Shown: one piece after another, positions 47,863 through 53,162 of the stretch | How positions within the stretch are numbered: position 1 is the first letter of the stretch | Layout: each line of letters starts with the position of its first letter | Source of the DNA: an uncultured delta proteobacterium | Lineage (GTDB): Bacteria > Desulfobacterota > Binatia > Binatales > Binataceae | Assembly: GCA_963711565.1 (NCBI GenBank) | Contig: CAVQEQ010000001.1 | Span: forward strand, 928,001 to 992,000 | Length of the DNA: 64,000 nt | Direction: 5' to 3' | Made by a program: the position numbers and the translations under genes | The notes under the pieces: model-generated | Seen by the model: only the letters and a program-made list of their open reading frames with translations | Database searches by the model: none | Told to the model about the DNA's origin: nothing

Positions 47863-47886
47863 GGTTGGCGCGATAATAACATGACG

Positions 47887-48417
47887 ATGAGCAAAGATTG
47901 GCGCGCGAAAATCAGACTGCGGCAGGGCGACCTGACTGACGCCGATGTTGATGCGATCGTCAATGCCGCCAACAACGATCTGATGCTCGGGGGCGGCGTC
48001 GCGGGCTCGATTCGCGTCAAGGGCGGACCGGCGATTCAGCAGGAGTGCAACAAAATCGGACCGATTGCGCTGGGCGAGGCGGCGATAACGGGCGCGGGAA
48101 GGCTGCGTGCGCGGCACGTGATTCACGCAGCGAGCATGCGGCTGGGCGAATCGACGTCGGAGGCGAATCTGCGCGCCGCAACGCGCAACTCATTGAGGCG
48201 CGCCGATGAAAACTCGCTGAAGTCGATCGCATTTCCGGCGATCGGCACCGGCATCGCGGGTTTTCCAATCGAGCGATGCGCTCAGGTGATGCTCGAGGAA
48301 GTGCGCGCGCATCTCGACGGTCCGACGACGCTCGAGCGGGTGGATTTCGTGCTCTTCGATCGACCGTCGCTGGAAGTATTCGAGCGAGTGTTCGGCGGGA
48401 TGAAGGATCTGCGCTGA
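47887..48417 (+). CDS. Macro domain protein (MacroD/YmdB-like)
   Basis: GDLT, AIVNAAN, GGGVAG, VIHA, IAFPAIGTG. Confidence 0.93.
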   Translation: MSKDWRAKIRLRQGDLTDADVDAIVNAANNDLMLGGGVAGSIRVKGGPAIQQECNKIGPIALGEAAITGAGRLRARHVIHAASMRLGESTSEANLRAATRNSLRRADENSLKSIAFPAIGTGIAGFPIERCAQVMLEEVRAHLDGPTTLERVDFVLFDRPSLEVFERVFGGMKDLR

Positions 48418-48571: not shown

Positions 48572-50086
48572 ATGCGGCTGGGAGCCATCGATGTCGGATC
48601 CAACTCCGTCCACATGATCGTCGCCGACGTTAGCCGCGACGGTCACCTCGAAGTCGTCGATCGCGTCAAGGAGATGGTGCGGCTCGGCCGTCGCTCGTTC
48701 ACGACGGGACGCCTCACGGCGGAATCGATGGACCTTGCGGTCCGCGCGCTGGTGAACTTCAAAAAACTGCTGCGAGTGCGCCGCGTGGAGAGGCTGCGCG
48801 CGGTGGCTACCAGTGCGGTACGCGAGGCGCGCAATCGCACGGAGTTCATCCGCCGCATCAAGCGCGAAACCGGCCTGACGGTCGAAGTGATCTCCGGCCT
48901 CGACGAGGCGCGCCTGATCTTCCAGGCCGCGCGTCATGCGCTCGGCCTCGACGGCGGACCTCATCTGCTCGTCAACGTCGGCGGCGGCAGCGTGGAACTC
49001 GTGCTGGTGCGCGACGGTAAGCCGCTGTGGATGCGCAGCGTGAAGCTCGGCGCGGCGCGACTAGCCGAGCGCTTTCTCCTTGACGACCCGCCGACGCGCG
49101 CGCAGCTGAGCAAGCTCGAGGTGTATCTCGAACGCACGATCGGTCCGCTGATGCGCAAGGCGAAGCGCGCGGGCGTGGTCCGCGCTATTGGAACGTCGGG
49201 CACGATCAACACCCTGGTCGCGATGGCGCGATCTTCGCGCGGCGAGGAGCTGGGGCGCCTGCATGGGGCGAGCGCGTCGGCCGGCGAGATTTCCGATCTG
49301 TCGCGCGACCTGGTCGAGGCCAACGCCGCGCTCCGCGTCGATCTCCCCGGGATGGACGCCAAGCGCGTCAACCTGATGCCCGCCGCTGCGACCCTCGTGA
49401 ACTTCATCCTGAAAAAATCCGGTGCGCCGGAGCTGGTCGCATGCACCTGGGCGCTGCGCGAGGGCGTGCTGCTGGGCCTCGCCCACAAGATCGATTCGCG
49501 CTCGGCCGCCGACGCCCGACGCCGCTCGGTCGGCGCCCTCGCCACTCGATTCGCCGCCGCCAACGACCACGGCAAGCAGGTCGCCAAGCTCGCGCTGAAG
49601 CTCTTCGATGCGACCGCGCCCGTTCTGGGCCTGCCCAAGTCCTCGCGAGAACTCCTTGAATTCGCGGCTTTATTGCACGATATTGGCCACGCGATTGATC
49701 ATGACCGGCACAATCGCCATTCTTACTACCTGATTAAGAATGCGGAGCTGTTCGGCTTCGACACTGACGAAATCGAGGTCATCGCACAGGCGGCTCGCGG
49801 GCATCGCAAGCAGGCCCCGAAGCTCGATTCGCCGGATTTGAAATCGCTCAGCCCCGCCAAGCGCCGCGTGGTTAGGGGCCTCGCCGCGATTTTGCGTGTT
49901 GCCGACGCGCTGGATCGAAGCCACTTCGGTGTGGTTAAGAATATCGAGGTCAGGTATTCACCGGGTCGTGTGATCGTCGGAGTCGATTCGAAGCGCGAGA
50001 AGGCCGACCTCGAACTGTGGACATGCGAGAGAAGAACCGACCTGTTATCGAGACTGCTGGATCGGCAGGTGGTGTTGCAGCGCTAG
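48572..50086 (+). CDS. ppx: Ppx/GppA phosphatase with HD domain
   Basis: AIDVGSNS, ATSAVREA, EARLI, GGGSVE, LREG, ALLHDIG. Confidence 0.95.
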   Translation: MRLGAIDVGSNSVHMIVADVSRDGHLEVVDRVKEMVRLGRRSFTTGRLTAESMDLAVRALVNFKKLLRVRRVERLRAVATSAVREARNRTEFIRRIKRETGLTVEVISGLDEARLIFQAARHALGLDGGPHLLVNVGGGSVELVLVRDGKPLWMRSVKLGAARLAERFLLDDPPTRAQLSKLEVYLERTIGPLMRKAKRAGVVRAIGTSGTINTLVAMARSSRGEELGRLHGASASAGEISDLSRDLVEANAALRVDLPGMDAKRVNLMPAAATLVNFILKKSGAPELVACTWALREGVLLGLAHKIDSRSAADARRRSVGALATRFAAANDHGKQVAKLALKLFDATAPVLGLPKSSRELLEFAALLHDIGHAIDHDRHNRHSYYLIKNAELFGFDTDEIEVIAQAARGHRKQAPKLDSPDLKSLSPAKRRVVRGLAAILRVADALDRSHFGVVKNIEVRYSPGRVIVGVDSKREKADLELWTCERRTDLLSRLLDRQVVLQR

Positions 50087-50862
50087 AGCTGCCCGCCGCC
50101 GTTCCTTCGCCTTCGCCCAACGGCCACGTTATTCCATCGGCCGCGCCCAGGACCCTGCTCGAAACTCCCCATCCTTATAAGGGACGTTTGATCTGCGTCG
50201 AGGGAATCGACGGCTCGGGCAAATCGACGCAACTGCTGCTGCTCGAGCGTTGGCTCCGCGCGCGCGGCTACCCGGTCCATTTCACGGAGTGGAATTCGTC
50301 GCGGCTGGTGCGGCGCTCGATGCAACGTGGCAAGAAAAAGAATCTGCTGACGCCGACCACGTTCTCGCTGCTGCATGCCGTCGATTTCGCCGACCGTCTG
50401 ACTTATCAGATCCTGCCGCCGCTGAAGGCCGGCATGATCGTGCTCGCCGATCGCTATGTCTACACTGCCTTCGCTCGCAACGTCGCGCGCGGCGTGCATC
50501 CGGATTGGGTGCGCTCGGTATACAGCCCCGCGCTGCGCCCCGATTTGACGCTCTACTTCCGCGTGCCGATCGATATCTCGCTCGAGCGCCTGCTGTCGGG
50601 ACGCGCCAAGCTCAAGTATCACGAGGCGGGCATGGACGTCGGTCTCTCTGCCGATCCGGTCGAGAGCTTCCGCATGTTCCAGAGCCGCGTGTTGGAAATT
50701 TACGATCAATTGACGACCGAGTTCGGGATGCGTCCGATCGACGCGACTGCCGAGATCCCCAATCAACAGAAGGTTGTGCGCACGATGGTCCAGGAAATTC
50801 TTCGCGACTATGACCTCAAGCGAGCGAACGGAAAAAATGGCGCCACATCGCAGACACGCTAA
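50023..50862 (+). CDS. Thymidylate-kinase-like P-loop protein A
   Basis: VEGIDGSGKST, ADRY, PDLTLY. Start uncertain. Confidence 0.88.
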   Translation: MREKNRPVIETAGSAGGVAALELPAAVPSPSPNGHVIPSAAPRTLLETPHPYKGRLICVEGIDGSGKSTQLLLLERWLRARGYPVHFTEWNSSRLVRRSMQRGKKKNLLTPTTFSLLHAVDFADRLTYQILPPLKAGMIVLADRYVYTAFARNVARGVHPDWVRSVYSPALRPDLTLYFRVPIDISLERLLSGRAKLKYHEAGMDVGLSADPVESFRMFQSRVLEIYDQLTTEFGMRPIDATAEIPNQQKVVRTMVQEILRDYDLKRANGKNGATSQTR

Positions 50863-51592
50863 AGCCTGGTACGGTCACGGCCTGCCGTACATCGCGAAGA
50901 AGCGCCTGCCCGGCCATTTGATCGCAATCGAAGGCACCGACGGCGTCGGCCGTTCCGCGCAAATCGAACTGCTGCGGCCGTGGCTCGAGCTCGAAGGCTA
51001 CGCCGTCAGCAACACCGGATGGACCCGCTCGCCGCTCCTTTCCGAGACCATCAACGAAGCCAAGGCCGGCCATCAGCTCACGGTGACGACCTTCTCGCTG
51101 CTCTACGCGGCCGATTTTGCCGACCGCCTCGAACACGAAATCCTGCCGGCGTTGCAGGCCGGCTTCATCGTGATCGCCGATCGCTACATGTACACCGCAT
51201 TCGCGCGCAACTCCGTGATGGGCGCCGACCCCGATTGGACGCGCGAGGTCTTCGGCATGGCGCTGGTGCCCGACCTCGTCCTCTACCTCGACATCGACGT
51301 CGAGTCGCTCATCCCGCGCGTCATCATGGGCAAGGGGATGGACTACTGGGAATCCGGGATGCATCTCGCGCTCGGCACCGACCTGTTCGATTCATTCGAG
51401 CGCTACCAGAGCCGCCTCATTGACGAGTACCGGCGCCTGTCGAGCGAGTTCGGCTTCATCTCCGTCAACGCGCGCCTTCCCATCGAAGAGCTGCAAAGCG
51501 AGATCCGAAAACACATCGCCGAATATCTGTCCGGCGCCAACGGCAAGCCGCGTCCCGACTCGGCCGACAACGGCGTATCGCGCAAGGAATAG
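50837..51592 (+). CDS. Thymidylate-kinase-like protein B with a degenerate P-loop
   Basis: IEGTDGVGRSA, ADRY, PDLVLY; clear paralogue of protein A. Confidence 0.88.
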   Translation: MAPHRRHAKAWYGHGLPYIAKKRLPGHLIAIEGTDGVGRSAQIELLRPWLELEGYAVSNTGWTRSPLLSETINEAKAGHQLTVTTFSLLYAADFADRLEHEILPALQAGFIVIADRYMYTAFARNSVMGADPDWTREVFGMALVPDLVLYLDIDVESLIPRVIMGKGMDYWESGMHLALGTDLFDSFERYQSRLIDEYRRLSSEFGFISVNARLPIEELQSEIRKHIAEYLSGANGKPRPDSADNGVSRKE

Positions 51593-51596
51593 GACT

Positions 51597-52665
51597 GTGG
51601 AAGATGAATCGCGCTCCGATGCGCCGCCGCGCAGGGTGACGCTTTCCCCCGGCGAAACCGTGGCCGACGCGGCGCGCAAGGCGATCGCGTTCGGCGCCGA
51701 ATCGCTCCTGCGAAATCAGAACGCGGCTGAAGCGGGCGACGTGGAGCCGATACATCAGCTGCGCGTCGCCACCCGGCGCCTGCGCGCGTCGATCGAATTG
51801 TTCGCGAACGTCATTTACGCCGCGCAGCTCAAAATCTTCCGGCGTGACATTCCGTGGATCGCCCATCAGGCGGGTGCTTGTCGCGAATGCGACGTGACCT
51901 CGGCGCTGATCGCCGCGCGCGCTGAAAAAATCGGTAGCGACCTGAGCGACGCGATCGCGCCGATGCTCGCGGCGCTCGACGAACGCCGCAAGGCCGGGCA
52001 CGCGACGTTATACGACCTGCTCGCGTCGAAGCGCTATCAGGGTCTGCTCGCGAAACTGTCGCACCCGGCGATCAAAAAAGTCGGCGCCGACCGCCGGCTC
52101 GGCGTCGTCGCCGCGCAATTGATCAGGCCCGCCTCGCGCGGCGCATCGCGCCTCGGCGAGAAGATCGCCGACGACGCTCCCGCCCTGGTTTTCCACAAGC
52201 TCCGCGTGCGCATCAAGCGGCTGCGCTACGAACTCGAAGATGATGGCGCCGCTCGGCGCCAAGCGTCATCGCAAAACTCTGGCCCGGCTCGAACAATTGC
52301 AGGAATTGCTCGGCCTCTATCACGACACCACGGTCGCGATTGCGTGGCTGTTGTCGTATGCCGAGACGTCGGCCGCGCCGCCCCGGACCGTGCTCGCGGC
52401 CGGCGCGTTGATCCAGTCGCTCGGCAAGCGTGAAAGCAAACTGCGGCGGCAATGCATGAAAGCGTGGAAGCGGTTCGAGCGTTCCGACGCGATGCGGGAT
52501 ACGCTCGAGGAAATTCGCAAAGCCGGCAGATTGAGCCCGATGCCCGTGAGCTCGCCCACTCAGGCTGCTGAATCATGCGAATCCGATCCGACGGATGAAT
52601 CGCGAATCGCGCACTCCAATCACAATTCGATGAACTCCCACTCCGCCGCGGCAACAATCCCATGA
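51597..52665 (+). pseudogene. CHAD domain protein, 1-nt frameshift near 52240 (probably an assembly error)
   Basis: IHQLRVATRRLR and FHKLRVRIKRLRY in one frame; LQELLGLYHD continues in ORF 52240..52665. Confidence 0.88.
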
Positions 52666-53162
52666 TGCTTTATATTCTCCGTCACGCGACCGCTGAACAG
52701 GCCGCGTCGAGCGGCGACGACGGCGCACGCAAGCTGACAGATCGCTCGAAGGAAAAAATGCGCGGGGCCGCGGCCGGCTTGCGCGCGATGGGCCTTAAGT
52801 TCAACGTGATCCTGACCAGCCCGCTGGTGCGCGCCGCCGAAACCGCCGAGATAGTGTCCGCCGCCTACGAAAACGCTACGCCCCCGCAAGTCCTGCCCGC
52901 GCTCGCGACCGGCATCGCCGCCACCGAAGCGGTAACCGCCCTGCGCGCATTTTCAAAGCACGAAGACGTAATGATCGTCGGCCACGAACCGCAACTGAGC
53001 GCGGTGACGTCAATCCTGCTAACCGGCGCGGCCGACGTAGCTCATTTGAAATTGAAAACGGGCGGCTGTATCGCGATCGACTTGCCGACGCGCTTCGAAC
53101 GCGGCGGCGGCGAGCTTCGCTGGATGCTGACCCACAAGCAATTGCGCCAGATGCGCAAATAG
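52662..53162 (+). CDS. sixA: Phosphohistidine phosphatase SixA
   Basis: LYILRHA, R-LT, TSPLVRAAETA, VGHEP. Confidence 0.92.
   Translation: MMLYILRHATAEQAASSGDDGARKLTDRSKEKMRGAAAGLRAMGLKFNVILTSPLVRAAETAEIVSAAYENATPPQVLPALATGIAATEAVTALRAFSKHEDVMIVGHEPQLSAVTSILLTGAADVAHLKLKTGGCIAIDLPTRFERGGGELRWMLTHKQLRQMRK

Follow-up and report, generated by a model that had tools for sequence, protein, structure and literature searches.

The gene cluster

Five genes lie on the forward strand between positions 48572 and 53162 of a 64-kb stretch of DNA from an uncultured member of the Binataceae (contig CAVQEQ010000001.1, positions 928,001 to 992,000; the whole stretch is called the window here, and positions count from its first letter). 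They overlap or abut and run in the same direction, as a preliminary description made from the sequence had noted, and very probably form a bacterial PPK3 operon, with the two central genes, A and B, orthologous to the catalytic (cPPK3, c) and regulatory (rPPK3, r) subunits of that polyphosphate (polyP) enzyme. The first gene, ppx (48572..50086), encodes a Ppx-GppA protein (PF02541, E 5.9e-61) with a C-terminal domain III (HD; PF21447, E 1.3e-30). Gene A (50023..50862; phmmer match to PDB 2plr/5h70, E 9.1e-57) starts at ATG 50023 or GTG 50017, overlapping the end of ppx by 64-70 nucleotides (nt), and its Walker A Lys codon is 50221-50223; its residues are numbered from the GTG. Gene B (50837..51592) overlaps A by 26 nt and contains CGT at 50951-50953, an Arg in the place of the Walker A Lys, and CGC at 51182-51184, the retained Arg of the DRX motif. 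A gene for a CHAD-domain protein of the polyP-binding family (51597..52665; PF05235, E 8.6e-30 and 3.6e-5 in two pieces) starts at GTG 51597, 4 nt past gene B, and its end is overlapped by 4 nt (ATGA) by sixA (52662..53162), encoding a phosphohistidine phosphatase (TIGR00249, 79.8 bits with a cut-off of 74.5). A scan of the genome finds its only ppx (by Ppx-GppA match), CHAD and sixA genes in this cluster.

The A/B pair is present in 33 of 36 genomes of the same genus, with B in two pieces in three of them, and the median dN/dS is about 0.05 for both cores (28 and 29 loci), purifying selection being as strong on B as on A. This recurrence and constraint argue that the pair did not arise by chance. 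The closest named homologues of gene B come from Candidatus Binataceae, and the best-matching sequencing runs are soil metagenomes.

Orthology of genes A and B with the PPK3 subunits

PPK3 was described in Sulfolobus, where the operon saci_2017-2021 has the order sixA-ppx-c-r-CHAD, and bacterial members were predicted (Hofmann et al., JBC 2026, PMC12995831; preprint bioRxiv 10.1101/2024.08.28.610084). Saci_2019 (cPPK3) makes polyP; Saci_2020 (rPPK3) shows no activity by itself and stimulates most strongly at a 1:1 ratio; the SaPPK3 complex is an alpha2beta2 tetramer, and neither protein yields dTDP (PMC12995831). The complex forms ATP at 12.4 U/mg and polyP at 0.22-0.25 U/mg, a difference of about 50-fold (PMC12995831). 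The preliminary description, which held that such a neighbourhood lacked biochemical characterisation, was mistaken on this point, because the mechanism of the Saci_2019/Saci_2020 pair had already been demonstrated biochemically.

Genes A and B are indeed paralogues with the fold of thymidylate kinase (Tmk): they are 43% identical (E 4e-64), and Pfam and NCBIfam assign Thymidylate_kin to both, with PF02223 above its cut-off. The motifs first read from the letters stand, namely GSGKST, TFSLLHAVDFADRL and EAGM in A and GVGRSA, TFSLLYAADFADRL and ESGM in B, as does the absence from both of the usual EPG motif of Tmk (TEWNSS in A, TGWTRS in B). Among solved proteins, S. tokodaii ST1543, which is named as the cPPK3 homologue (PMC12995831), is the nearest relative of each (E 9e-57 with A, 1.4e-42 with B); canonical Tmk trails far behind, and the next matches are at 6e-14 and 3e-12, respectively. 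A predicted model of B (pLDDT 92) also has an ST1543 structure, 2plr, as its top fold match (TM 0.81, root-mean-square deviation 2.2 Å). ST1543 (STK_15430; PDB 2plr, 4nzy, 4rzx and 5h70) was solved without its r partner and deposited as a dTMP kinase.

The comparison with archaea draws on 11 loci from a motif scan, six with the full operon (Metallosphaera, Acidianus and two archaeal metagenome-assembled genomes), one with a canonical tmk and four unmatched by the queries. Gene A is 45-49% identical to the six Sulfolobales-type cPPK3 and matches 77 of the 120 columns invariant among them, retaining K69, W92-N93-S94, K106-K108, H120, R127, R146, R154, R158, R191 and K200; the Walker A Lys (K69) and the DRX Arg (R146) are thus both intact. 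At the 18 columns where these archaeal c subunits share Lys, Arg or His, a proxy for the polyP-cleft list of the PPK3 paper, A has Lys, Arg or the same His at 15 and B at nine. Gene B is 28-32% identical to the r subunits of the same six loci and 37% to their c subunits; it is nearer c by raw identity because archaeal r is fast-evolving.

In a careful tree of 45 of 99 rows, from which long, gappy or redundant rows were dropped by the analyst, 37 PPK3-like rows stand apart from eight canonical Tmk at 100/98, and B falls with four archaeal r subunits within a 19-row clade at 98/100. A quick tree of all 99 rows supports the Tmk side at 96. The grouping of B with r is backed by residues common to B and archaeal r: in both, Arg stands at the position of the Walker A Lys, Tyr at that of the c-type His120, Gly at that of Glu91 and Asp at that of Lys200. 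A recent duplication giving rise to A and B was considered and rejected, the two lying in different clades. Sequencing error was likewise rejected as the origin of the Walker A Arg of B, whose CGT codon is three bases from either Lys codon and, as first noted, beyond the reach of a one-base error, and so was the possibility that B is a decaying pseudogene.

Public annotations would make A, or the pair, a second ATP-dependent dTMP or NMP kinase: PF02223 scores above cut-off, homologues are labelled 'dTMP kinase', and ST1543 was deposited as one. The residues and the genome make this extremely unlikely. The dTMP-binding EP motif, present in 15 of 15 Tmk rows, is WN in A and WT in B, and both genes score below the TIGR00041 cut-off of 83.25 bits (A at 78.6 and B, narrowly, at 82.6). 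The orthologue Saci_2019 made no dTDP (PMC12995831), and the ST1543 assay followed ADP only, according to the preprint (10.1101/2024.08.28.610084). A canonical tmk, whose existence had been set down as a check, is present elsewhere (C1:452001-452642, beside a holB-like open reading frame) and scores 187 bits with TIGR00041. Canonical Tmk proteins share with A and B the fold, P-loop, DRX motif and lid arginine, but A and B are only 26-27% identical to the genome's own Tmk, lack EP and lie on the opposite side of the tree.

A second comparison is offered by two-domain class II PPK2 proteins such as PA3455, in which an active and an inactive P-loop unit likewise occur together and polyP drives nucleotide phosphorylation (PMC12995831). 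These form a separate family, however: neither A nor B matches the PPK2 profile (PF03976) at E 0.01, and the genome's PPK2 is encoded elsewhere.

With SaPPK3 the likeness extends over several features. The same five gene types are present, c precedes and overlaps r, a separate canonical tmk exists, the Tmk fold lacks EP, A is close to Sulfolobales-type c, and B lies in the r clade with the Walker A Lys-to-Arg change found in five of six archaeal r. The differences are that sixA is last here and first in Sulfolobus, that A and B are 43% identical as against 22-38% for c and r in the preprint (10.1101/2024.08.28.610084), that B is longer at its N terminus, where a GLP motif is conserved, and keeps the DRX Arg, and that PPK1 and PPK2 are also encoded in this genome.

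PPK1 and PPK2 in the genome and its relatives

The window contains neither ppk1 nor ppk2, as originally observed, but both occur elsewhere in the genome, which settles their status and removes the implied role of the cluster as the cell's missing ppk. The ppk1 gene (C1:1137498) encodes an intact PPK1 of 761 amino acids (TIGR03705 above cut-off), and ppk2 (C3:61438; TIGR03709 above cut-off) is the one PF03976 match in the genome. Among the 36 same-genus genomes, ppk1 is found in 35, ppk2 in 33 and all three systems in 29.

Most PPK3 genomes encode neither PPK1 nor PPK2 (PMC12995831). In the class's other families, PPK3-like genes occur in seven of 24 genomes (cut by a contig end in one), and ppk1 is found in one of these seven versus 11 of the 17 PPK3-less genomes, kin being non-independent and several assemblies fragmentary. 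The low frequency of ppk1 in the PPK3-bearing genomes of other families fits the published pattern of replacement, and the genus is an exception to it.

As to gene surroundings, ppk2 lies a few genes from open reading frames that resemble phoU, phoB and phoR by eye (G000:C3:61438-66000), while ppk1 sits among unrelated genes. At one locus from another family of the class (L048:3169-6111, genome G038), ppk2 is directly 5' of the PPK3 pair.

The second subunit

The published reason for the inactivity of rPPK3 (Saci_2020, STK_15420) is the loss of the DRX Arg (PMC12995831). Six of six archaeal r subunits have DGY at this motif, whereas gene B has DRY and retains the Arg (R116). To place B among its homologues, 150 best representatives of 50%-identity clusters were surveyed, and the 125 domains covering both motifs were kept, fragments being dropped. 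The 62 B-like domains have the Walker A Arg in 57 cases and the DRX Arg in 60, the 50 A-like domains have the Walker A Lys in 46 and the DRX Arg in 46, and 13 domains are unclear; the 120 closest relatives of B all have the DRX Arg. Since the Lys-to-Arg change is kept across r types, being found in B and in five of six archaeal r, and the DRX Arg is lost in archaea, the former is the common r trait. Loss of the DRX Arg is, by the same token, a later archaeal change. The term 'Walker A' does not occur in the main text of the JBC article (PMC12995831).

The retained residues bear on the claim that B is a pseudokinase. Loss of the Walker A Lys speaks for it, while retention of the DRX Arg and of other basic residues, missing from the archaeal subunit type that was assayed, speaks against it, so that the claim is plausible but not established, and gene B appears to be an rPPK3 orthologue rather than a proven inactive subunit. 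There is a real, if minority, possibility that the heteromer is as proposed and B is no dead scaffold but an allosteric sensor of nucleotide or polyP, or a subunit with residual catalysis whose site is tuned by the P-loop Arg; the archaeal subunit that was assayed would then be a degenerate offshoot. Such a role would accord with the near-universal DRX Arg, with R116, R124 and the lid residue R161 being invariant in 23 bacterial r rows, with the r-specific conservation of R39, R64, Y90 and W171, with a dN/dS as low as that of A, and with the position of archaeal r as a long branch nested among bacterial r. On the other side, B lacks the Walker A Lys, WNSS, H120, K107-K108 and K200 of cPPK3, and the constraints of an interface alone could account for the conservation. 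A Lys-to-Arg change in Walker A usually retains binding and impairs transfer, which also counts against a live B. The helix after the WNSS position has a net charge of +7 in A and 0 in B, again to the disadvantage of a live B, but helix charge was not used as a family test because it fails to separate archaeal c from archaeal r.

A more specific form of this idea, argued from the kept DRX, lid and neighbouring Arg residues together with the near-fixed Lys-to-Arg P-loop, is that bacterial B represents an ancestral, still ligand-binding rPPK3 through which the direction of PPK3 is set, either as a switch sensing nucleotide or polyP or as an additional active site. This is rather unlikely. If true, it would give PPK3 a job distinct from those of PPK1 and PPK2 and explain why the genus retains all three.

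The opposite pattern also occurs. P0200, P0237 and P0266 keep the Walker A Lys and replace the DRX Arg. Together with P0227 they are r-like (DRX Arg replaced, WNSS lost) with the Walker A Lys kept, and the quick tree puts them with the c side. This small group may represent another regulatory subunit that arose independently.

Apparent lesions in the assembly

The CHAD gene does carry the PF05235 domain, but an extra A at 52237-52238, a +1 frameshift that had been overlooked, breaks it into two reading frames. Of 29 loci of relatives, 26 have an unbroken CHAD frame, one shares the extra base (L023, genome G009), one has no CHAD (L020) and one runs into a contig end. At four further positions (48974, 49370, 50479 and 51467) the window has A where the contigs of four of four runs have G. 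Three of these give Asn here and Asp in relatives: 48974, in the xGGGSxE motif of ppx, 49370, also in ppx, and 50479, in gene A, where 28 of 29 loci of relatives have Asp and the 29th does not cover the position.

Decay of an operon made redundant by PPK1 and PPK2 would account for the frameshift as assembled and for the three Asn codons, and the identical CHAD insertion in L023 is in its favour. It is nonetheless very unlikely. The extra A is missing from the near-identical contigs of four of four runs (about 99% identity over their long pieces), as are the changes at 48974, 49370 and 50479, and the dN/dS of about 0.05 is not that of a decaying pair. Since they are absent from all four runs, the extra base and the G-to-A changes are probably assembly errors; three of the four G-to-A changes in the operon share one six-base context, which gives them the look of systematic miscalls. 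Genome-wide counts of the hexamer are only suggestive, the motif being rare in relatives too. Other genes of this genome may carry false frameshifts or Asp-to-Asn changes.

A proposed mechanism for the Binataceae PPK3

The preliminary proposal of an A/B heteromer acting as a polyP-dependent nucleotide kinase or a polyP synthase, with B regulatory, gains support from the orthologous Saci_2019/Saci_2020 pair, for which it was shown biochemically (PMC12995831). What is established for this genome is the order of the genes, their orthology, their residues and the selection on them, and the presence of tmk, ppk1 and ppk2 at other sites. Activity, activation at 1:1 and the tetramer have been demonstrated in Sulfolobus alone and would carry over to A and B by orthology; that A and B form a heteromer is suggested by the same orthology and by natural fusions of the two subunits.

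Several points weigh against assigning the cluster to PPK3. Six Sulfolobales-type orthologues were used in place of Saci_2019 and Saci_2020 themselves. In the careful tree, the c side lacks firm structure at its base, 20% of bootstrap trees showing it as one clade, and the long branch of archaeal r meets a second long one, which drew a warning from the program. Gene B lies just 0.65 bits below the TIGR00041 dTMP-kinase cut-off and keeps the Arg whose replacement marks rPPK3 in the published description. The genome has both ppk1 and ppk2, unlike typical PPK3 genomes, and as assembled it has a CHAD frameshift and an Asn at 50479 in gene A. In the open literature, subscription papers being outside the scope of the search, no assay of a bacterial PPK3 was found.

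On the PPK3 reading, A and B would form an A2B2 enzyme shuttling phosphate reversibly between polyP and ADP/ATP, likely favouring ATP regeneration. Gene A would bind ADP or ATP at its intact P-loop and polyP in a basic cleft replacing the dTMP pocket, and would pass the terminal phosphate of polyP to ADP, the reverse taking place only at a high ATP/ADP ratio. Activation of A by B would come about through oligomerisation; Ppx would break polyP down to phosphate, and the CHAD protein would bind the granule. Because ppk1 is also present, PPK1 is likely the main maker of polyP and PPK3 an ATP buffer for low-energy or emergency conditions; this division of labour is one that we infer.

Alternatively, the main task of A and B in vivo could be to synthesise polyP, with CHAD and Ppx as partners in a granule cycle apart from PPK1. 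The pair does occupy the usual place of ppk1, beside the genome's only ppx, CHAD and sixA, and cPPK3 does make polyP (PMC12995831); the scarcity of ppk1 in PPK3-bearing genomes outside the genus, with the reservations given above on kinship and fragmentary assemblies, points the same way. Synthesis as the main task is unlikely, however, in view of the much faster reaction of the archaeal enzyme towards ATP (PMC12995831), of the intact PPK1 here and of the presence of ppk1 throughout nearly all of the genus.

Flanking gene and transcription

A macro-domain gene (47878..48417, forward strand; PF01661, E 2e-36) ends 154 nt upstream of ppx and is possibly co-transcribed with it. Such a gene lies 5' of ppx in all three same-genus long loci and was not seen at seven loci of other families, several of which are incomplete; it is not part of the PPK3 operon as published (PMC12995831). 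A scan for promoters and terminators found none above shuffled sequence (1 versus 1.0 and 9 versus 6.2 +/- 2.7), and five RNA runs contain only 5-6% of the words, which is not evidence of expression. 'Binat' has no match among the 31,788 of 47,545 rows consulted of supplement 1 to the JBC article (PMC12995831).

Fusions and related domains

Both subunits are found joined in nature: P0121 (Alicyclobacillus) is a c+r fusion, P0141, P0151, P0160 and P0193 are fusions of c, r and Ppx domain III, and P0338 joins Ppx to c. A single possible fusion is mentioned in the PPK3 paper (PMC12995831).

SPX is a eukaryotic phosphate-sensing domain. It is fused to cPPK3-like domains in P0218 (from EukProt, labelled Ancoracysta twista), an SPX-cPPK3-DUF2252 protein of 794 amino acids, and in P0274, an SPX-MFS-cPPK3-DUF2252 protein of 1297; in P0337 (labelled Rotaria sordida, 1350 amino acids) the kinase domain alone is scored by Pfam. 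The cPPK3-like domains of all three have intact Walker A, WNSS and DRX motifs. The records are apparently eukaryotic, with prey or a contaminant as a possible source. Because SPX senses phosphate, the SPX-fused proteins may be phosphate-regulated polyP enzymes. In the PPK3 paper, the enzyme is reported from archaea and bacteria only (PMC12995831), and no paper on fusions of SPX and thymidylate kinase in connection with polyphosphate was found in the open literature, with the same restriction on subscription papers.

A family of MFS-cPPK3-DUF2252 fusions of about 1,200 amino acids (P0212, P0213, P0217, P0230, P0245 and P0275-P0330) has no fused r subunit and possibly couples transport to polyP synthesis. 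Of 72 sequence matches to P0218, 63 combine the kinase and DUF2252, and nine of 11 organism-named matches are Elusimicrobiota. A separate Atlas search with P0218 gave scores of 0.78 or less. P0212 and P0218 are sisters at 96/99 in the careful tree, which suggests transfer between Elusimicrobiota-type bacteria and eukaryotes. Other contexts include large proteins with an InPase domain (PF18823; P0214, P0235 and P0336, one with ART-PolyVal), which look like polyvalent proteins of mobile elements, and a NUDIX domain fused to a cPPK3-like domain (P0248).

Significance

The system itself is already known as PPK3, published 2024-2026, and the surprise is low because that work explains it. The departure from the published description is that the second subunit keeps the catalytic DRX Arg, and the published reason for rPPK3 inactivity is inapplicable to the bacterial form. 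Mis-annotation of PPK3 genes as dTMP kinase is widespread: of 8,000 candidates that were scored, 7,629 passed E 1e-20, many of them bearing that label, which suggests that bacterial members are more numerous than 'a few bacteria'. The genus, having all of PPK1, PPK2 and PPK3, lends itself naturally to studies of their separate roles. The SPX-fused cPPK3-like proteins point to possible eukaryotic polyP enzymes and are probably more interesting than the operon itself.

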